DNA of 64,000 nucleotides from an uncultured Gammaproteobacteria bacterium (lineage in GTDB: Bacteria > Pseudomonadota > Gammaproteobacteria > Steroidobacterales > Steroidobacteraceae): contig CAVVDZ010000006.1 in assembly GCA_963747145.1 (NCBI GenBank), positions 311,756 to 375,755 of the forward strand, in the 5' to 3' direction. The notes below the pieces were generated by a model that was given only the letters and a program-made list of their open reading frames with translations, was not told the origin of the DNA and ran no database searches. Shown here one piece after another: positions 17,578-53,009 of this stretch. Position numbers and translations under genes: made by a program. Each line of letters opens with the position of its first letter. Position 1 is the first letter of the stretch.

Positions 17578-17697
17578 GATTGCTCCTGTTCGGGTTAAGC
17601 CTCCGCGGATCCGCATGCGGCAACCAGGCCCGAAGGCCCGGCACCCAGCCGCACGTGACGATACGCGTGTGGATTTGGTTGAGAAAAAACGCCGCGC

Positions 17698-40624: not shown

Positions 40625-41590
40625 TCAGTTGATGGTCTTGGAGACCGGCCCGGCGTTCGCGCTTTCGGCACCGGTCGTGTCGTAGGCGCTGATCACGAAA
40701 TAATAGGTTCCCGCGGGCAGGTTCGGGACGACCGCGCTCGTCAGGCTTCCGTTCGTGATATCGACGAGGTTCGGGTAACTGCCGATCGCGGTCCCGTAGC
40801 GGATGTGATAACCGTCGAGATTGGTCAACGACGATCCGTCCGTGCGCGTCGTCGGTGGCTGCCAGGAAAGCGTGGCGCTGCCGAGCGATGCCTGTGCGAC
40901 CACGATCGTGAATTGCGGCAGCGTCGCCGTGGCGGAACCGTCGCCGACGCCGATCGTGATACTCGCGTAGTTGCCGACCGTACCGGTGCCGGGTGTGCCC
41001 GTCAGTGCGCCGTTCGTGTCGTTGAACGACGCCCACGCCGGCCGGTTCGCGATGCTGAATGTCAGCGCATCGCCATCGGCATCGTTCGCCACGGGCGTGA
41101 ATGCATACGCCTGGCCTTCACGCGCCGCCGCGGGCGGCGATCCGCTGATCGTCGGCGCCCGGTTGGATTGCGTGACGCTGACTGCGAACGGCGCCAGCGA
41201 AGCGCTCGCCTGGCCGTCGCTGACGCTGATGCGGATGTCGATGTATTCGCCGACCGCTGGCGCCGCCGGTGACCCGGAGAGTTGCCCGTTCGCGGTGCTG
41301 AAGGAGGCCCAGGCAGGCCGGTTCACGATGCTGAAAGAGAGCGGATTGCCGTCGGGGTCGGATGCCACCGGCGTGAAGCTGTAGGTCTGGCCGGTGATCA
41401 CCGAGGGCGCCGGCGCGCCCGAAATGACCGGAGCGCCATTTGCCGGCGGCGGCGGCGGCGGCGGCGGCACCCAGCAGGTTCTGCCCCTGCGCTTCCACCG
41501 ACAGCTCCAGGTATCGGCTTCGGCAACGGAGGCCAGTGTCATGGCGGTCACGAGGAATGCCACGACCGCTATCAATTTCGCCTGGCGCAT
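40625..41590 (-). CDS. Secreted protein: signal peptide, Cys-loop, poly-Pro linker, 2 He_PIG/cadherin-like repeats, C-terminal FN3
   Basis: The ATG at 41590 is preceded by GGAG. Signal peptide MRQAKLIAVVAFLVTAMTLASVAEA, then DTWSCRWKRRGRTCWVPPPPPPPP. Two ~92-aa repeats follow (GQxYxFTPxAxDxDGxxLxFSIxNRPAWASFxxxxGxLxGxP...). The FN3-like tail is ATLSWQPPTTRTDGSSLTNLDGYHIRYG...YYFVISAYDTTGAESANAGPVSKTIN. Confidence 0.75.
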   Translation of the reverse strand: MRQAKLIAVVAFLVTAMTLASVAEADTWSCRWKRRGRTCWVPPPPPPPPANGAPVISGAPAPSVITGQTYSFTPVASDPDGNPLSFSIVNRPAWASFSTANGQLSGSPAAPAVGEYIDIRISVSDGQASASLAPFAVSVTQSNRAPTISGSPPAAAREGQAYAFTPVANDADGDALTFSIANRPAWASFNDTNGALTGTPGTGTVGNYASITIGVGDGSATATLPQFTIVVAQASLGSATLSWQPPTTRTDGSSLTNLDGYHIRYGTAIGSYPNLVDITNGSLTSAVVPNLPAGTYYFVISAYDTTGAESANAGPVSKTIN

Positions 41591-41604
41591 GTCGATGACT
41601 CCGC

Positions 41605-41641
41605 TGTTGTGTGGCCGGGCTGTCGCACCGGCCACAAACAA
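41605..41641 (-). promoter_or_regulatory. Leader hairpin between the riboswitch aptamer and the RBS (candidate expression platform)
   Basis: RNA sense: GUUGUUUGUGGCCGG ugcgacagc CCGGCCACACAACA, immediately followed by GCGGAGUCAUCGAC-AUG. There is no U-tract. Confidence 0.45.
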
Positions 41642-41677
41642 CGGACGCCGAGGTAGAGCACAGACGTGCCGCCTCAA

Positions 41678-41760
41678 GTGGCAACCCCGCTATCGTGGGC
41701 CGTGCGGCCGACAGACCGGTGGCTTTGCGCCCCCGCCTTTCGACGGGTTTGCTCTGTTTC
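41678..41760 (-). promoter_or_regulatory. c-di-GMP-I (GEMM-I) riboswitch aptamer
   Basis: RNA sense: ACAGAGCAAACCCGUCGAAAGGCGGGGGCGCAAAGCCACCGGUCUGUCGGCCGCACGGCCCACGAUAGCGGGGUUGCCAC. It has the conserved GCAAACC block, a GAAA-capped P1b (CGUC/GGCG), GGGNCGCAAAGCC, CCGG, and AGCGGGGUUGCC closing P1 (GGCAA/UUGCC). This is a near block-for-block match to the V. cholerae Vc2 aptamer as I remember it. Confidence 0.85.
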
Positions 41761-41773
41761 ACTGTCGACGGGG

Positions 41774-41801: not shown

Positions 41802-41864
41802 GCACGGCGTGTCGCGACCGGCAGACACTTTGCGACAGTCAGTGACGCAACAGTGCGTCGGGAC

Positions 41865-44800
41865 TTATGTCCTGGTGCGGGTGATCAGCTTGCGGTGCGG
41901 GAATCCGGACATCGGGCACGGGCGGCCGCACAGGAATCCCTGCGCATAGCCGACACCGATCTGGCGCAATGTCTCGAGCACTTCGGGAGTCTCGACGCGC
42001 TCGGCGACGGTCTCGATGCCGATCGCTTTGCCGATCTGGACGATCGCCTCGACCATGCTCCGGTCGATGCGGTCGTTGGCAACGTTCTGGACGAACTGCC
42101 CGTCGATCTTCAGGAAATGCACCGGCAGCGTGCGCAGGTAATTGAACGACGACAGTCCGCTGCCGAAATCGTCGAGCGCGATCAGGCAGCCGCGGCTCGC
42201 CATCTCGCGCATCAGGTAGCTCGCGTGCCCGAGGTTCGTGATCGCGGCCGTTTCGGTGACCTCGAAGCACAACACGCCCGGCGTCGGCTCGTGGGTCTCA
42301 AGGGTCTGGATCAGGAATTCGAGGAATCCCGGGTCGGAGAGTGTCGTTCCGGACAGGTTGACCGCGACCGTGAACTCCGCCGTCTCGACGCCATCCTTGG
42401 TGGACGGCACGATGTCGCGCAGGACCTTTTCGACGACCCAGCGATCCAGCGACGGCATCAGGTTGTAGCGCTCAGCCGCCGGGATGAACTCGTCGGGCAA
42501 CACGGTCTGGCCATTCTCGTCAAGCAGGCGCAGCAGCAATTCGTAATGCGGCCGCGCGTCCGCCGGGCCTGAGATCTTGACGATCGGCTGGAACACGATG
42601 TCGAGGCGTCCCTCATCGCGGGCGTTCGTCAGCCGCGACATCCAGCGCATCTCACGGTGGCGCGCCGAGGCGCTCGCCGGGTCGTAAACCTGCACGCGGT
42701 TGCGGCCGCCGTCCTTTGCCGAATAGCAGGCAATGTCGGCGGCCGACAGCAGCGTCGCGACGCTCTCAGTGTCGTGGTTGATTTCGACGATGCCGATGCT
42801 GGCGCCGATCTGCAAAGTGCTCGCGCCCCAGTTGAACCGCAGGTCGCGGATCGCCTGGCGAAGCATGTCGGCGATGCGCAGCGCCTGCTCCGGCGTGCAA
42901 TGCTCGAGCAGCACGCCGAACTCGTCGCCGCCGAGGCGCGCCAGCACGTCGTTGGCGCGCACGCGGGTCTGCAGCAGGCCCGTGACCTGGCGCAACAGCT
43001 GGTCGCCGGCCGGATGGCCGCAGGTGTCGTTCACGACCTTGAACTGGTCAAGGTCCACATAGACCATCGCATGGCGGATGTTGTGGTCCGCGCGCGCGGT
43101 TTCCAGCGCGACATTGAGCCGGCTCTCGAACTCGCGGCGGTTGATCAGCCCGGTCAGTGCGTCGTGCGCCGCCTGGTAGGACAACAGGCGCTTCATCCGG
43201 CGCTCGCGGCTGACATCGCTGAAGACCATCACCGCGCCGGCCGTGTTTCCATTGCGATCGCGGATCGGTGCCACCGTCGCCTGGATCGGCACCTCGGCAC
43301 CGCTCCTGCTCACGAGCACCGTCTGGTCGGCAAGGCTGAGCGGCTCGCCGGTCACGAGCGCGCGGCTCACGGGGTCGTCGATCGGCGCCTGGCTGCCGTC
43401 GGTGACCAGCTTGACGACGACCGTGACATTGCGGCCACAGGCCTCGCGGGAATCCCAGCCGGTCAGCTTCTCGGCGATCGGATTCACGTAGTCGATCGTC
43501 CCGGCGCGATCGGTCGTGATCACCGCGTCTGCGATCGACTGCAGTGTGACCTCAGCGCGCTCCTTCTGCTCGTAGAAGCGCTGCTCAGCGCGCTTGCGCT
43601 CCGTGATGTCCGTGACCGTTCCCTCGAAACCGGTCGGCTGGTTGCGCTCGTCGCGGTTGAGCCGCGCGTTCTCCGTGATCGTGATGATCGTGCCGTCCTT
43701 GCGCTTCAGGTCGTACTCGGTCTCGACCAGCTCGCCCTCGGTGATCAGCCGGTCGATCAGCCGGTGGCGGGTCTCGGGCACGACATACAGCGTCTCGGTC
43801 GAGCCGATGGCGCGCAGTTCCTCGAGCGAGGCATAGCCCAGCATCTCGATCAGCGCCGGGTTGGCCGACAGCAGGTAACCCTCCAGCGTGACCTGGTAGA
43901 CGCCCTCGACGACATTGTCGAAGAGGCCGCGGAACCGCCGTTCGCTTTCCCGCAGCGCGTCCTCGCTGCTGCGCCGCTCGATCGCGATGCGCGCGAGCTG
44001 GGCCATGCGTCCGACCAGTTCGAGGTCGCGCCGCGATGGCATGCGCGTGCGCTTCAGGTAGGTTGCGAATGTGCCGAGCGTGCGGCCATCGGCCCCGGTG
44101 ATCGGCGTCGACCAGCAGGCATGCAGGCCGGCCCGCGCGGCCGCGTCGCGGCGATGTTCCCACAGCGCGTCCTTCGCGATGTCCGGGACGATGATCTGGC
44201 GCTGCAGCGCCACTGCTGCGGCGCAGGATCCGAAGCGGATCTCGGCAGGGACATTGTCCATCAGCGCGACATACTCGCGCGGCAGACTGGGACCGGCCGC
44301 ATGGGTCAGCGTCCGCTTCACCGGGTCATACAGCCGGATGCAGCAGACCGCGTCCGGCAGCACGCGTTCGACGACCTCGGTGATCGCCACCAGCGCGCCC
44401 GTCAGCGGCTCGTTCGACGCGATCTTCTCGAAAGCGCGCCGTTCGCCTGTGCTGATCAGCTCGGCCCTCTTGCGCTCGGTGATGTCGATGATGCTGGCTC
44501 GGATCAGGCTGCCATTGGAACTCGGCAGCCGCACGAAACGAACTTCGCAGGGCATTACATTGCCGTCGGCATCGCGGTGCAGCCACTCGAAGACCGGCGC
44601 GCCGCCCGACAGCGCCTCTTCGACATAGCCGCGGCTGATGCCGAATGACGGCGTACCATCCGCCTGCAAGGGCGGGCTGACCGACGCCGGCCCGATGCTC
44701 AGGAGCTTCTCGCGGGTCATCTTGAAGAATTCGGCCGCGTTCTCGTTGCAGTCCACGAAGCGGCCGGACTCGACGTCCAGCACGACGACCGCCTCGGGCG

Positions 44801-45551
44801 CGTTTTCGACCAGCACGCGGTAGCGGGCCTCGCTGTCCTTCAGCGCGTCCTCGGCCTTGGACCGCTCGGCCATGTCGCGCACGCAGATGATGTAGGTCGG
44901 GCGGCGCTTGGTCAGCATCTTGCTGACCAGGACCTCGGCCGGCATCAGGTCCCCACGCTGGTGCTTTGCGACCACTTCGCGTGCCGCCAGGTCGTAGTGC
45001 GTGTTTTCCTGGGACGCCGCCAGGTCATCGAGCGTGCGGCCGATGTCGCCGCCGACCGCGATCTGCGGCAGCAGCACGTCCAGCGTCTGCGATAGCACGT
45101 CGCTCTGACGGATGCCGAAGAAGCGTTCCGCGGTGCGGTTGACGCTTTCGATCTGCCCGCGGTAGTCGCAGGAAATGATCCCGTCCTTGACGTGATCGAG
45201 TATCGCCTGCAGCTTCGCGACGCTCTCCCGCTCGACCTTTTCCGTGATCGCCGTCGCCTCGTCCGAGGCGAGCCGCATGACGGTCTCGAGGCTCGTGCGT
45301 TCGTTCTCGAAAATGTCGTACTGGTGGGTAACGATCGTCAGCAGCTTGCGCAGCCGCATCTTGCCGTCGGTGTCGGCGGCTTCGAGCAGCTGGCGCTCCA
45401 GCAGGGGGTGGAGGTCATCGGCGCGGCGCTCATGCTCCGCCGCGGGCTCCGCTACGGCTGTCGGCACAGGCGCAGCCACGGGCGTCGCGACTGCCTTCGG
45501 CGCAGGCGCTTTGAGCCGCACGACATTGCCCGGATCTTTCTTGGCCACCAT
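41865..45551 (-). CDS. Multidomain c-di-GMP turnover protein: PAS-PAS-GAF-PAS-PAS-GGDEF-EAL
   Basis: 1228 aa with repeated PAS-type blocks, each ending ...DITERKRAE. A GAF-like segment (RLYDPVKRTLTHAAG...CWSTPITGADGRTLGTFATY). GGDEF domain with intact RLGGDEFGVLL and DLDQFKVVNDTCGH. EAL domain with YELLLRL, NLSG, FEVTE, ALDDFGSGLSSFNYL, LKIDGQFV, AERVET and GYAQGF. Confidence 0.9.
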   Translation of the reverse strand: MVAKKDPGNVVRLKAPAPKAVATPVAAPVPTAVAEPAAEHERRADDLHPLLERQLLEAADTDGKMRLRKLLTIVTHQYDIFENERTSLETVMRLASDEATAITEKVERESVAKLQAILDHVKDGIISCDYRGQIESVNRTAERFFGIRQSDVLSQTLDVLLPQIAVGGDIGRTLDDLAASQENTHYDLAAREVVAKHQRGDLMPAEVLVSKMLTKRRPTYIICVRDMAERSKAEDALKDSEARYRVLVENAPEAVVVLDVESGRFVDCNENAAEFFKMTREKLLSIGPASVSPPLQADGTPSFGISRGYVEEALSGGAPVFEWLHRDADGNVMPCEVRFVRLPSSNGSLIRASIIDITERKRAELISTGERRAFEKIASNEPLTGALVAITEVVERVLPDAVCCIRLYDPVKRTLTHAAGPSLPREYVALMDNVPAEIRFGSCAAAVALQRQIIVPDIAKDALWEHRRDAAARAGLHACWSTPITGADGRTLGTFATYLKRTRMPSRRDLELVGRMAQLARIAIERRSSEDALRESERRFRGLFDNVVEGVYQVTLEGYLLSANPALIEMLGYASLEELRAIGSTETLYVVPETRHRLIDRLITEGELVETEYDLKRKDGTIITITENARLNRDERNQPTGFEGTVTDITERKRAEQRFYEQKERAEVTLQSIADAVITTDRAGTIDYVNPIAEKLTGWDSREACGRNVTVVVKLVTDGSQAPIDDPVSRALVTGEPLSLADQTVLVSRSGAEVPIQATVAPIRDRNGNTAGAVMVFSDVSRERRMKRLLSYQAAHDALTGLINRREFESRLNVALETARADHNIRHAMVYVDLDQFKVVNDTCGHPAGDQLLRQVTGLLQTRVRANDVLARLGGDEFGVLLEHCTPEQALRIADMLRQAIRDLRFNWGASTLQIGASIGIVEINHDTESVATLLSAADIACYSAKDGGRNRVQVYDPASASARHREMRWMSRLTNARDEGRLDIVFQPIVKISGPADARPHYELLLRLLDENGQTVLPDEFIPAAERYNLMPSLDRWVVEKVLRDIVPSTKDGVETAEFTVAVNLSGTTLSDPGFLEFLIQTLETHEPTPGVLCFEVTETAAITNLGHASYLMREMASRGCLIALDDFGSGLSSFNYLRTLPVHFLKIDGQFVQNVANDRIDRSMVEAIVQIGKAIGIETVAERVETPEVLETLRQIGVGYAQGFLCGRPCPMSGFPHRKLITRTRT

Positions 45552-49226: not shown

Positions 49227-51001
49227 CTACGGAATGGTCTTGGAGACGGGGCTCGAATCGGCGCTTTCCACGCCCGCGGAATCAAAGGATGCGAGCACGA
49301 AGAACCAGGTGCCCGATGCCAGGTTTTCGACCATGTAGCTCGTCACGCCCGGATTGTTGATCGAGATCGTGGTCGGGTAATTGCCGGCGGCATTGCCATA
49401 GCGGACCTTGTAGCCGGCCAGGTCCGTGAGCGGCGAACCATCCGCGTGAGTCGTCGGCGGCGTCCAGCTGAGCGTCGCCGTACCGTTGGCGGACTGCTGG
49501 ACCGTAATCGAGAACGCGGCGAGCGAAGCCTGCAGCGTGCCATCGCTGGCCGTGATCACGACGTTCGGATAGCTGCCGATCGTGCCTGCGCCCGGCGTGC
49601 CTGACAGCCTGCCGGTGCCGGTATCGAATGCGGCCCACGAAGGCTTGCCCGTGATGCTGAAGCTGATCGCATCGCCATCCGGGTCATTCGCGGTCGGGAT
49701 GAACGAATAGGCTTGCCCGGCGACGACCGAGGTGGCCGGCGCGCCTGAAATCGTCGGCGGGCGATTGGCCTGGTCCACGGTGATCGAGAACGCCGCCAGC
49801 GCGGTGTTTGCCATGCCGTCACCGACACTGATGCGGATGTCCACGTACTCGCCGACCGCGCTCGATGCCGGCGTGCCCGACAGGCGGCCGGTCGTCGCGC
49901 TGAAAGTCGCCCAGGTCGGCCGGTTCACGATGCTGAAGCTGATCGGGTTGCCATCCGGATCGGAAGCCGTCGGCGTGAACGAGTACGCCTGGCCGCTGGT
50001 CACGGTCGCTGCAGGCGTTCCACTGATCGTCGGGGCGCGATTGGGTGCGACGGTGATCGTGAACGAGCCCAGCGATGCGGACAGGCTGCCGTCGCTCGCG
50101 GAGATCACGATACCGGCATAGCTGCCGGCACTACCCGCCGGCGGCGTGCCGGACAGGCGCCCATTGCTGGTGCTGAAGCTCGCCCAGGACGGCTTGTTGC
50201 TGATGCTGAAGCTCAACGGATTGCCGTCGGGATCGCTCGCGGTCGGCGTGAATGCGTAGGCGATGGCTTCGCGCCCGGCCGTGGACGGGCTGCCGCCGAT
50301 CACTGGCGGACGGTTGGCCGCAGTCACGGTAATCGCAAATGCCGGCAGCGCAGCGCTTGCCGCGCCGTCGGAAACGCTGATCCGGATGTTCGAGTAAGTC
50401 CCGGCTGCGCCAGAGCCTGGTGTGCCGGACAGGCGTCCCGTGGCCGCACTGAACGCCGCCCAGGCCGGTCTGCCCGGAAATCGAGAATGTCAGCGCCTGC
50501 CCGTCAGGATCGGAGGCCGCCGGTGTGAACGCGTACGCCTGCCCTTCGACGACCGATATCGGAGCGCTGCCAGAGATCACGGGCGGGCGGTTGGCCGGCG
50601 GCGTCACGGGCGCCGCATTCGACGACGATGCGGAAGGCGTTGCCCTGCGTGACGTTGACGCTGTCCCTGACGGAAATCTGCACCGCATCGTAGGTGCCGA
50701 CATTCGCGTCGGCGGGCGTACCGGACAACCTGCCCGTCGCGCTGTCGAACGACGCCCAGGCGGGCTGGTTCGCGATCTCGAATGTCAGCGGATCGTTTTC
50801 GGGGTCGCTCGCCGTCGGCGTGACCTGGAAAGGGTTGCCGGCCATGATCGACGACTCGGTCGCCACCGTGGAGATTGTCGGCGCCTGATTGACGGGCGGT
50901 GGCGGAGTCGCTGCCGCTGCGTCGCTTTTCTGCTCGTCCCATGGGCACGCGCTCAGGGGAAGAACGAGCAGTCCGACTGCCAGGATTCTCAGCATTCTCA
51001 T
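49227..51001 (-). pseudogene. Lipoprotein with 5 He_PIG/cadherin-like repeats plus C-terminal FN3; the reading frame is interrupted twice by single inserted bases
   Basis: The gene lies in three track ORFs (50504..51001, 50131..50703, 49227..50327) that join into one protein. N-terminus: MRMLRILAVGLLVLPLSAC (lipobox). Five ~92-aa repeats follow, then ATLSWTPPTTHADGSPLTDLAGYKVRYG...WFFVLASFDSAGVESADSSPVSKTIP. The frame breaks are at about 50620 and in the CCC run at 50473..50475. Confidence 0.78.
49494..50896 (-). repeat. Five degenerate tandem coding repeats (~276 bp each, He_PIG-like modules); boundaries approximate
   Basis: The peptide pattern NR(A/P)P(T/V)ISG...GQAY(S/A)FTP(T/A)ASDPDG(N/Q/D)x(L/I)(S/T)FSIxx(R/K)P(S/T/A)WAxFxxxxGRLSGTP...(F)xITV recurs 5 times. 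Confidence 0.7.
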
Positions 51002-51072
51002 GTGGCAACCCCGCTGTCTCTCTCGAGACCGGAAGCTTTGCGTCCCCGCCTCACGACGGGTTTGCCGCTTAC
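51002..51072 (-). promoter_or_regulatory. c-di-GMP-I (GEMM-I) riboswitch aptamer abutting the start codon
   Basis: RNA sense: AAGCGGCAAACCCGUCGUGAGGCGGGGACGCAAAGCUUCCGGUCUCGAGAGAGACAGCGGGGUUGCCAC, followed directly by AUGAGAAUG. It has the same conserved blocks as the 41678..41760 copy, with a GUGA-capped P1b and a short GAGA-capped P2 (GUCUC/GAGAC). Confidence 0.85.
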
Positions 51073-51126
51073 ACTTGATTCAACGTGCCGGGATTATCGG
51101 GCCGTCATCGCGAGCGCGTGAGACCG

Positions 51127-51150
51127 CCCTGTCGTGCCACAGCGACAGGG
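51127..51150 (-). terminator. Stem-loop after the 1-repeat paralog gene
   Basis: On the minus strand, CCCUGUCG cuguggca CGACAGGG forms an 8-bp stem 20 nt after the stop at 51171. There is no U-tract. Confidence 0.35.
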
Positions 51151-51170: not shown

Positions 51171-51836
51171 TCAGGCGATCGTCTTGGAGGCGACGTTCGA
51201 CCGCGAGCTCTCGCCGCCCGTGTCGTCATAGGCGGTGGCCGCGAAGAACCAGGTGCCGACCGTCAGGTTGTCGATCAGCTGGCTGCGCGCGCCGGGGTCT
51301 GCGACCTGAATGACGAAATTCATGTCGCTGGCCGAATTTCCATAATAGACGCGGAAGCCGGCCAGGTTGGTCAGCGGGGTGCCGTCCACGCGCTGCGTCG
51401 GGGCCTGCCAGGAAAGCGTCGCACGGCCCGCCACCGCCGCAGAGACCGTGATCCTCGACTGGTTCGAGGCCTGCGCCTTGCCGTCCGACACGGTGAAGAC
51501 CGGCGTGAACACGCCGACGTCGCCGGCGGCAGGCGTGCCCGTCAGCACGCCGGTCTGGGCCGAGAAGTTCGCCCAGGTCGGCCGATTCGAAATCGAGAAT
51601 GTCAGTGCGTCACCGTCAGCGTCGGACGCGGTCGGCGTGATCGTCAATGCGCGGCCAACCAGGACGTCGATGGAACCCGTGACCGAAATGGTCGGCGCGT
51701 GGTTGACCGCAGGCGGGGGCGGCGTGACTACCGGCGGCGGCTCGCTCGAAGTCTTTGATCCGCCTCCGCCAAAGCACGCGACCAGCGCCATCGCTGCGGT
51801 TCCGATCAGGGCAGTACGCAATGTGAATGCGATCAC
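51171..51836 (-). CDS. Lipoprotein with 1 He_PIG/cadherin-like repeat plus C-terminal FN3 (third paralog)
   Basis: The GTG at 51836 is preceded by AGAGG. N-terminus: IAFTLRTALIGTAAMALVAC (lipobox), then a Pro-rich linker. One repeat (LTITPTASDADGDALTFSISNRPTWANFSAQTGVLTGTP). FN3-like tail: ATLSWQAPTQRVDGTPLTNLAGFRVYYG...WFFAATAYDDTGGESSRSNVASKTIA. Confidence 0.75.
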   Translation of the reverse strand: MIAFTLRTALIGTAAMALVACFGGGGSKTSSEPPPVVTPPPPAVNHAPTISVTGSIDVLVGRALTITPTASDADGDALTFSISNRPTWANFSAQTGVLTGTPAAGDVGVFTPVFTVSDGKAQASNQSRITVSAAVAGRATLSWQAPTQRVDGTPLTNLAGFRVYYGNSASDMNFVIQVADPGARSQLIDNLTVGTWFFAATAYDDTGGESSRSNVASKTIA

Positions 51837-52018: not shown

Positions 52019-53009
52019 ATGGGTCCCATTCTGGTCACCGGCGGCGCCGGTTACATCGGCAGCCACGTCGCTCGCCAGCTCGGAGAGCGTGGTGAACTGC
52101 TTCACATTCTCGACAATCTGTCGACGGGCTTTCGGTCGGCGGTCCTGCATGGCGAATTGACGGTCGGCGATACCGGCGATGCCGGGCTGGTCCTCGATCT
52201 CCTCCAAAAACACCGGATTGAAAGCGTCCTGCATTTCGCGGCCCATATCGTCGTGCCGGAATCGGTTGCCGATCCGCTGAAGTACTACCGCAACAACACC
52301 TGCGCCACCCGAAACCTGCTCGAGTGCTGCGTGCGGGCTGGCGTCAAGCACGTGATCTTCTCCTCGACGGCCGCCGTCTACGGATTGCCCGCGGGCGGCC
52401 GGGCGTCGGAGGACACGCCGACGGTGCCCATCAATCCCTACGGCCAGTCAAAGCTGATGAGCGAATGGATGCTGCGCGATACCTCCGCCGCCTATCCGCT
52501 GCGCCACGTCGCGCTTCGATATTTCAATGTGGCCGGCGCCGACCCCGGCGGCCGCATCGGCCAATCGACCCCCGAGGCCACGCATCTGCTGAAGGTCGCC
52601 TGCGAGCACGCGGTCGGGAAGCGCGATTCCGTGTCGATCTTTGGCACGGACTACGACACGCCGGATGGCACGGGCGTGCGGGACTACATCCATGTCGAGG
52701 ACCTTGCCGATGCCCACCTGAAGGCGCTCGATTACCTCCGCACGGGCGGTGTTTCCGCGACCCTCAATTGCGGCTACGGCAAGGGCTACAGCGTCCGCGA
52801 AATGCTCGACATGGTCGCCAGGGTTGCAGGCAAGAAGCTCGTGGTTCGGGAAGCCCCCCGCCGCGCGGGCGACCCGTCGGAGCTCGTGGCAATTGCGGAT
52901 CGAATCCGGAAGACACTCGGCTGGCAGCCTCAGCTATGCCGACCTGGAAGGTATCGTCAGGACCGCGTTGGCCTGGGAACGGCGGCTGGCGGGCCAGCCG
53001 CCCTCCTAG
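52019..53009 (+). pseudogene. galE: UDP-glucose 4-epimerase with one inserted base near the 3' end
   Basis: MGPILVTGGAGYIGSH, SSTAAVYG, PYGQSKL, RYFNVAGADP. After LGWQPQ the frame shifts at an extra c at 52934. The conserved tail YADLEGIVRTALAWERRLAGQPPS-stop (53007..53009) is in the +1 frame. Confidence 0.87.

Follow-up and report, generated by a model that had tools for sequence, protein, structure and literature searches.

A c-di-GMP-I aptamer that runs directly into the start codon of a He_PIG/fn3 lipoprotein gene in a Steroidobacteraceae genome

The aptamer and the lipoprotein gene

The 64,000-nt stretch of DNA analysed here, hereafter the window, is part of contig CAVVDZ010000006.1 (positions 311,756 to 375,755 of the forward strand; assembly GCA_963747145.1) from an uncultured gammaproteobacterium of the family Steroidobacteraceae. 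Its minus strand carries a lipoprotein gene with five He_PIG repeats and, directly upstream, an aptamer of the cyclic di-GMP-I (c-di-GMP-I, GEMM-I) class in a 5′ regulatory position that fits the gene context of GEMM-I, namely genes with extracellular, membrane or motility functions. The start codon of the gene follows the closing helix of the aptamer with no spacer. The gene and the parts of the aptamer are as follows:

49227..51001, minus strand: regulated lipoprotein gene encoding five He_PIG (putative Ig) repeats followed by an fn3 domain at the C-terminus (Pfam)
50945..51001, minus strand: lipoprotein signal peptide MRMLRILAVGLLVLPLSAC with lipobox LSAC
51072..51074 with 51002..51004, minus strand: aptamer P1, G51074-U-G51072 paired with C51004-A-C51002 (Rfam model and inspection)
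51040..51065, minus strand: aptamer P2 with a GUGA (GYRA) tetraloop at 51051..51054
51037..51039, minus strand: AAA linker of the aptamer
51007..51037, minus strand: aptamer P3, short and without a tetraloop receptor
51066, 51039 and 51005, minus strand: equivalents of the ligand contacts G20, A47 and C92, respectively, from alignment to the Rfam consensus

The whole window was scanned against Rfam with cmscan, and the c-di-GMP-I clan (CL00126) gave two matches, 41677..41763 and 51000..51075, both on the minus strand. The second scored 66.7 bits with RF03167 (gathering score 59, E 1.4e-13), so that the GEMM-I aptamer named in a first-pass annotation made from the sequence alone now has a covariance-model match above the gathering score. 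The RNA-sense sequence quoted in that annotation is exactly the minus strand, which reads GATAAT CCCGGCACGUUGAAUCAAGUG UAAGCG GC AAA CCCGUC GUGA GGCGGG GAC GC AAA GCUUCCGGUCUC GAGA GAGAC AG CGGGGUU GC CAC AUG AGA AUG. The model match reaches the A and U of the AUG, i.e., it overlaps the start codon, and the orthologous leaders described below were matched by Rfam in the same way.

The first hairpin (GC / AAA / CCCGUC-GUGA-GGCGGG / GAC / GC, then an AAA linker) fits the description of GEMM-I, which has a 2-bp stem, a 3-nt internal loop, a 6-bp stem, a GNRA tetraloop and an AAA linker to the second hairpin (PMC1950547). The GUGA loop together with a short, receptor-less P3 corresponds to the GYRA subtype of Weinberg et al. 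2007 (PMC1950547). Pair counts over 17 orthologous leaders gave 97–99% pairing for the aptamer helices. The equivalents of G20, A47 and C92 (G51066, A51039 and C51005) are all present in the window aptamer; in the numbering of Vc2 (the riboswitch of the Vibrio cholerae tfoY leader), these residues are the c-di-GMP contacts of the crystal structures. From its sequence, the window RNA is predicted to bind c-di-GMP.

The top Rfam label, the specificity variant c-di-GMP-I-GGC (RF03167), was ruled out for this aptamer. The consensus sequences of the two models differ at one informative position, GACGC-A-AA in RF01051 and GACGC-G-AA in RF03167, which is equivalent to A47 of the Vc2 structure. This position is an A (51039) in the window and in all relatives, and here the cmscan alignment mismatches the RF03167 consensus G. 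The window aptamer is therefore like the GGC variant in its best-scoring model, its short P3 and its modelled P1, but unlike it in lacking the G at the A47 position. Given an A at the defining position, together with canonical residues at the G20 and C92 equivalents and a canonical AAA linker, we file the aptamer as canonical c-di-GMP-I and read the RF03167 label as a scoring artefact of the short P3 and of the P1 in that model. RF03167 apparently out-scored RF01051 on every short-P3 aptamer tested, because it models P1 and a short P3. The lower RF01051 match of the window was masked by clan competition, and one orthologous leader (L003) was matched under RF01051 (43 against a threshold of 35). 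Annotation pipelines that report the best hit only would thus mislabel canonical (A47) short-P3 aptamers as RF03167 'c-di-GMP-I-GGC'.

The open reading frame (ORF) from the ATG ends after 165 aa. In three-frame translation the coding sequence passes into frame +1 at ~50620 and into frame +2 at ~50470, and ortholog tblastn pieces in frames −1, −2 and −3 confirm the two frame changes. Reconstructed across both, the protein has 590 aa with a signal peptide, five He_PIG repeats and fn3 (Pfam). The five-repeat lipoprotein of the first-pass annotation was thus right as to its repeats, but it is not one ORF and needs two +1 frame changes. Intact orthologs from metagenomes and metagenome-assembled genomes (MAGs) have 589–596 aa and 69–77% identity, and named relatives at 55–59% identity are annotated as Gammaproteobacteria or Steroidobacteraceae. 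All frame segments are stop-free and 69–77% identical to the orthologs over their full length. The NAD-dependent epimerase gene 2 kb away has a single-base frame change near 52934, its conserved C-terminal end (...YADLEGIVRTALAWERRLAGQPPS and stop) lying in another frame, and the nearby BipA, APH kinase and GGDEF-EAL genes are intact. Because this neighbouring gene carries a like defect, the three single-base frame changes within 4 kb suggest indel sequence errors rather than decay. Pseudogenisation and programmed frameshifting were both rated unlikely, since both changes in the lipoprotein gene are plain single-base insertions outside slippery motifs and the epimerase gene is likewise defective.

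A start codon at the edge of the aptamer

Four further elements of the leader are needed for what follows:

51093..51098, minus strand: −10-like hexamer GATAAT; predicted transcript start near A51086, giving a 5′ untranslated region of ~85 nt
51076..51078, minus strand: 5′ strand UCA of a proposed extension of P1, pairing with U51000, G50999 and A50998
51009..51012, minus strand: Shine-Dalgarno (SD)-like GGGG on the 3′ side of the lower P3 stem, 7 nt ahead of the AUG
50999..51001, minus strand: start codon AUG, adjoining the 3′ end of the P1 strand CAC (0-nt spacer)

The ATG at 51001..50999 follows the conserved block ...GGGGUUGCCAC directly after GCCAC and opens MRMLRILAVGLLVLPLSAC, just as had been proposed from the sequence. 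Orthologous leaders for comparison were gathered in two ways, by exact look-up of ortholog proteins (L001–L006) and by a pattern scan of metagenomes; the scan pattern spans the linker and P3 only, with P1 and the start left out. In the 17 further orthologous leaders the junction is GCCAC followed by AUG (12) or UUG (5), which with the window makes 13 ATG and 5 TTG in 18 leaders, and in one of the TTG leaders (L182) the start is shifted by one extra base. The start triplet is in frame with M/L-x-x-L-x-x-L-A-x-G-L-L-A-L-S-M-T-A-C in every visible junction. There is no in-frame Met before the lipobox Cys in L003, and the only Met in L001 lies 2 residues before the Cys; with no usable alternative Met, TTG must be the start in L001. 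A downstream start (M3, 50995..50993, or later) was ruled out, as M3 varies between K, M, I and L across the orthologs, and position 1 is always AUG or UUG.

By this comparison the AUG at the end of the aptamer is the real start, and not a codon far downstream, the outcome against which the first-pass annotation had hedged its claim. Since the junction, the frame and the signal peptide are kept across the orthologs, the zero-nt spacer is a conserved and selected feature. Gene callers missed the true start in several orthologous proteins (P0097, P0112 and P0104), choosing an internal Met and beginning at MTAC or MAGC. For annotation in practice this means that the true start of zero-spacer genes can be overlooked.

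The GGGG upstream of the AUG is the sole purine run in the last 20 nt and thus, as had been noted, the only SD-like element. According to the Rfam alignment and the pair counts it pairs with C51035, U51034, C51032 and C51031. The layout expected for direct occlusion, with 0 nt from P1 to the AUG and the GGGG inside P3, is found in 18 of 18 leaders.

Pairing can also continue from P1 into the start codon. Beyond a mismatch between A51075 and the A of the AUG, the residues A51076, C51077 and U51078 can pair with U51000, G50999 and A50998, which would draw start-codon positions 2 and 3 and the opening base of codon 2 into an extension of P1. In the 17-sequence alignment P1 is 98% paired and the five-pair extension 89%, as against 4–55% in registers shifted by up to 4 columns. 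Three of the extension pairs (U-A, C-G and N-U) are kept in 16–17 of the 17 leaders. The first base of codon 2 is an A in 17 of 17 leaders with a varying amino acid (Ser AGC/AGU, Arg AGA, Lys AAA, Asn AAC), and in the window codon 2 is AGA, which is rare here (1 of 261 Arg codons in the window genes). This initial A may be a hint of constraint at the RNA level.

Upstream of the aptamer, 15 of the 17 aligned leaders have ~45 extra nt between the −10 box and P1 that form a hairpin, H0 (GAAUCGGGUCU-loop-AGACCuUGGUUC). It occupies alignment columns 39–66 (L001 3851..3879, also L002, L004, L135, L139, L158 and others). H0 is 97.6% paired in the 17-leader alignment, with two compensatory and six one-sided changes, and its lower stem is 100% paired compared with 3–60% in shifted registers; the pairing and the compensatory changes mark it as a real helix. 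The 3′ arm of H0 (GGUUC) is at the same time the strand of the P1 extension, columns 63–66 being common to both. The window and L006 are without H0 and read GAAUC-AAGUG and GAUUC-ACGUG, as though it had been deleted between the arms, and in this alignment they are the minimal form from which H0 was lost. By nearest-neighbour energy, P1 alone contributes ~0 kcal/mol, the extension contributes −2 to −6.5 and H0 contributes −5.5 to −16. As these energies favour H0 over the extension, H0 should win without ligand, and together with the overlap of the two helices they suggest that H0 may serve as a platform-like element on the 5′ side of the family leaders. The earlier proposal that the aptamer itself is the ribosome-binding region, with no separate platform, therefore stands for the window and for the 3′ side of all members, but it does not stand for the family, most of which has the 5′ hairpin.

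The −10 candidate GATAAT, already pointed out in the first-pass annotation, aligns with nAnAAT, which is invariant or nearly so in 17 of 17 aligned leaders. No −35 consensus was found upstream of GATAAT. Transcription would start near 51086.

Proposed switching, its alternatives and its recurrence

On balance, we favour a translational OFF switch that works by direct occlusion, with no spacer between the sensor and the coding sequence; the OFF polarity is what we infer from this arrangement. The mRNA would start ~7 nt past GATAAT, and the whole 85-nt leader would then be the aptamer with a few flanking bases. Binding of c-di-GMP at the three-helix junction would lock P1 and the junction, as in Vc2. 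The 30S subunit needs the region from about −15 to +5 in single-stranded form. The bound fold would bury the GGGG in P3 and place the AUG against or inside P1, hiding most of this stretch, and synthesis of the He_PIG/fn3 surface lipoprotein would drop. Without ligand, the 3-bp P1 would not be stable alone and the lower part of P3 is wobble-rich, so the site could open. In most orthologs H0 would hold the extension strand in the absence of ligand and might thus act as an anti-sequestor that leaves the start codon free, while in its presence P1 formation could nucleate the extension at the cost of the lower stem of H0.

Several observations weigh against this reading. Being a local hairpin, P3 probably forms whether or not ligand is bound; the GGGG could then be masked in either state and might not serve as an SD sequence at all. 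In thermodynamic folding of the leader, used here for relative helix energies only, the native aptamer is not the minimum-energy structure; left unconstrained, the fold goes to alternative pairings in which the start region is likewise buried, and the energies fail to separate the states. The extension shows one compensatory change only (G-C to A-U in L006) and, since its 3′ strand is fixed by its coding role, amounts to pairing compatibility and not to proof. Its 5′ strand is also part of H0 in most orthologs, so that its conservation could stem from H0 alone, and in the window it consists of only 3 bp (−2.1 kcal/mol by nearest-neighbour energy). The A at the start of codon 2 could also be explained by a general preference for A after start codons, and the regulated gene is frameshifted in the window sequence. 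Finally, high c-di-GMP usually induces adhesins, and an OFF switch for an adhesin-like protein at high c-di-GMP would be counter-intuitive, being contrary to the usual biofilm logic.

The biofilm logic speaks for the opposite polarity, an ON switch in which the ligand-free RNA misfolds and buries the start and the ligand-induced native fold presents the start codon at the edge of the compact aptamer. The unconstrained fold is indeed non-native (GGCA/UGCC, CCCG/CGGGG, GUGU/ACAU), pairs both the AUG and the GGGG, and has a lower nearest-neighbour energy than the native fold. However, energy predictions are unreliable for G+C-rich leaders with tertiary structure, and the z-score of the 112-nt leader is −0.86. 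The native fold has the GGGG in P3 and the AUG abutting or entering P1, so the bound state is not open either, and competition between H0 and the start-codon-pairing strand in the orthologs is only sensible if that pairing represses. We therefore regard an ON switch as rather improbable. It is also unlikely that the output is the fate of the mRNA, with a secondary or absent translational effect, either because the 5′ structure shields the transcript from 5′-end-dependent decay or because reduced translation leads to Rho-dependent termination. Such an output would suit an aptamer at the extreme 5′ end of the predicted transcript, and with the GGGG probably hidden by P3 in both states a pure SD-occlusion switch is not obvious; a role in RNA stability is reported for Vc2 (bioRxiv 10.1101/617340). 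Yet a stability element needs neither the exact conservation of the start codon against P1 nor the potential of the start codon to pair, and no intrinsic terminator was found on the minus strand. That the riboswitch is a decaying relic, freed of selection in this genome because its gene is a pseudogene, seems very improbable. The two frame changes do break the gene, but the aptamer core is identical to that of the intact orthologs, the stop-free segments keep their identity to the orthologs throughout, and the third frame change, in the epimerase gene, points to indel sequence errors.

Riboswitches are usually described as a conserved aptamer with a separate downstream platform, and to our knowledge the c-di-GMP-I cases studied use terminators or a distant ribosome-binding site. 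Vc2 shares with the window its class, the three helices, a GNRA loop on P2, the AAA linker and the G20/A47/C92 contacts, and it is reported to be a translational OFF switch, its P1 forming in response to the ligand and thereby repressing translation (PMC11705072). Its ribosome-binding site is masked away from the aptamer, as Inuzuka et al. 2018 are summarised in PMC11705072, whereas the window has 0 nt between P1 and the AUG. Vc2 also has a GAAA tetraloop and its receptor, in contrast to the GUGA loop and the short P3 without receptor in the window.

Direct occlusion as we propose it for the window is an established mechanism of riboswitches, forming the 'Group 1' that contains SAM-II/V, SAM-III, SAM-SAH and some preQ1-I and preQ1-II (PMC10907184). 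In these, as in the window, aptamer and platform are one unit, and the fold that the ligand stabilises includes the ribosome-binding region (PMC10907184). They are mostly H-type pseudoknots with other ligands, whereas the window has a three-helix c-di-GMP-I aptamer, and here the start codon rather than a strong SD sequence abuts or enters P1. The c-di-GMP-I class is absent from the classes given for direct occlusion in that review. In SAM-VI, a ligand-free 5′ helix, P0, is displaced by the ligand-driven P1, which blocks the ribosome-binding site (summarised in PMC11705072). This exchange of P0 and P1 parallels that of H0 and the P1 extension in 15 of the 17 aligned leaders, with a different aptamer and ligand; unlike that of SAM-VI, the exchange involving H0 is deduced from overlapping helices and energies only, and the window itself is without H0. 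Literature searches turned up no account of a c-di-GMP-I aptamer that abuts a start codon, which with the thin coverage of subscription journals is weak evidence of absence.

To see how common the layout is, a genome collection was scanned with a general pattern covering the 3′ half of the GEMM-I aptamer, which gave at least 120 loci and 124 aptamers from many phyla. Zero-spacer cases were accepted if the start lay within 4 nt and the N-terminus was a convincing signal or transmembrane sequence; taking the first start of a long ORF over-calls in G+C-rich genomes. Among the matches listed, an SD sequence begins at most 16 nt from the aptamer, with a start within ~20 nt, in about 10 of 124 aptamers, and by this count translational control near P1 is ordinary. 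Credible zero-spacer cases number 2 of 124 among the matches listed: L057 (3441..3515, Solirubrobacteraceae MAG, gacAUG) and L093 (2622..2696, Candidatus Bipolaricaulota MAG, gaagAUG). Rfam confirmed both; in each, the match stops at the AUG or beside it, and this AUG opens the gene of a secreted or membrane protein. The product of L093 is subtilisin-like, judged from sequence motifs. None of the Steroidobacteraceae aptamers among the matches listed has a start codon against the aptamer.

A second family, 'class B', comprises ~29 metagenome loci (e.g., L127, L130, L143, L168 and L202) in which the aptamer (...GGGGUCGCCAC(G)) runs directly into the AUG that opens a conserved 217-aa ORF (MEPITAPPNPFVAETGSLVIPSFEE..., MEPITAPPNPF...). 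This ORF contains hydrophobic segments and gave no significant Pfam match. One-repeat He_PIG/fn3 lipoproteins start 1 nt (L137, L213; GTG) or 7 nt (L167, L201) after the aptamer. Overall, the zero-spacer layout is thus rare, yet it recurs, having been derived independently, in a second gene family and in two other phyla. The 'class C' loci (L128, L151, L157, L178 and others) have a different leader design with the same aptamer core: the aptamer is followed by AAGGAAACC and short AUG-containing stretches, and a ~620-aa subtilisin-like protein (MSHQCPFPV...) lies ~70 nt downstream.

Tentatively, the c-di-GMP-I class might include a recurrent zero-spacer subtype, one that we have not found described. 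Its members would work by direct occlusion, most of them with the 5′ H0 as the sole switching element and hence with the platform upstream of the sensor, and the window would be a minimal member without H0. A natural c-di-GMP aptamer of ~85 nt with a start codon in or against P1 would be the smallest known translational unit of the class. Such a compact unit would suit toeprinting, single-molecule studies of ribosome–aptamer competition and compact c-di-GMP-responsive reporters, and orthologs with and without H0 offer a natural comparison of how a competing helix may tune a direct-occlusion switch.

Promoter side, paralogous leader and neighbouring genes

Two other features of the window relate to this leader:

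51127..51150, minus strand: inverted repeat CCCTGTCG-N8-CGACAGGG, core TGTCG..CGACA, ~35 nt upstream of the −10-like box
41677..41763, minus strand: paralogous GEMM-I aptamer of the GAAA tetraloop type (RF01051, 74.2 bits)

All 17 orthologous leaders keep the inverted repeat, even L003, where no co-directional gene lies upstream. No terminator-like site was found on the minus strand, and no T run follows the repeat. A role as terminator of the upstream paralog was ruled out, given the missing T tract and the presence of the repeat in L003 without an upstream gene. The repeat is likely a candidate transcription-factor site, and a transcription factor acting there, if real, may add a second layer of control. 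A looser TGTCGC...GCGACA lies at ~41805..41835 on the minus strand, upstream of the paralogous riboswitch.

The paralogous aptamer lies upstream of a two-repeat He_PIG/fn3 protein (Pfam) with its ATG at 41590. An 87-nt spacer (41677..41591) contains a strong hairpin and a GGAG SD sequence, followed by the ATG and a signal peptide (MRQAKLIAVVAFLV...). The spacer with its hairpin and an in-frame UUG after CAC had both been described before, and the ORF 40625..41677 does open with TTG. The 29-codon extension from this UUG does not resemble a signal peptide. The in-frame UUG is probably a coincidence, because the GGAG, the ATG and the signal peptide lie 87 nt downstream. For five orthologs of the zero-spacer gene, CAC-UUG-AG is the context of the functional start. 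That the two leaders in the window share an ancestor, as earlier hinted, is plausible given that their genes are paralogous.

In orthologous loci the gene order is syntenic and comprises a histidine kinase, the epimerase, a small He_PIG paralog, the lipoprotein gene, the APH kinase, BipA and a PAS-GGDEF-EAL protein. In the window, a third lipoprotein paralog of the He_PIG/fn3 type borders the riboswitch on its upstream side (51171..51836, minus strand; 221 aa, one repeat), with no Rfam match before it. The gene directly preceding the first riboswitch-controlled He_PIG gene codes for a 1228-aa PAS/GAF/GGDEF/EAL protein (41865..45551, minus strand). A gene for a c-di-GMP turnover enzyme thus lies beside two c-di-GMP-sensing leaders, an arrangement that is syntenic in the orthologous loci. 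Elsewhere in the window, a t44 RNA (RF00127) was matched at 17594..17689 on the minus strand with 69.2 bits.

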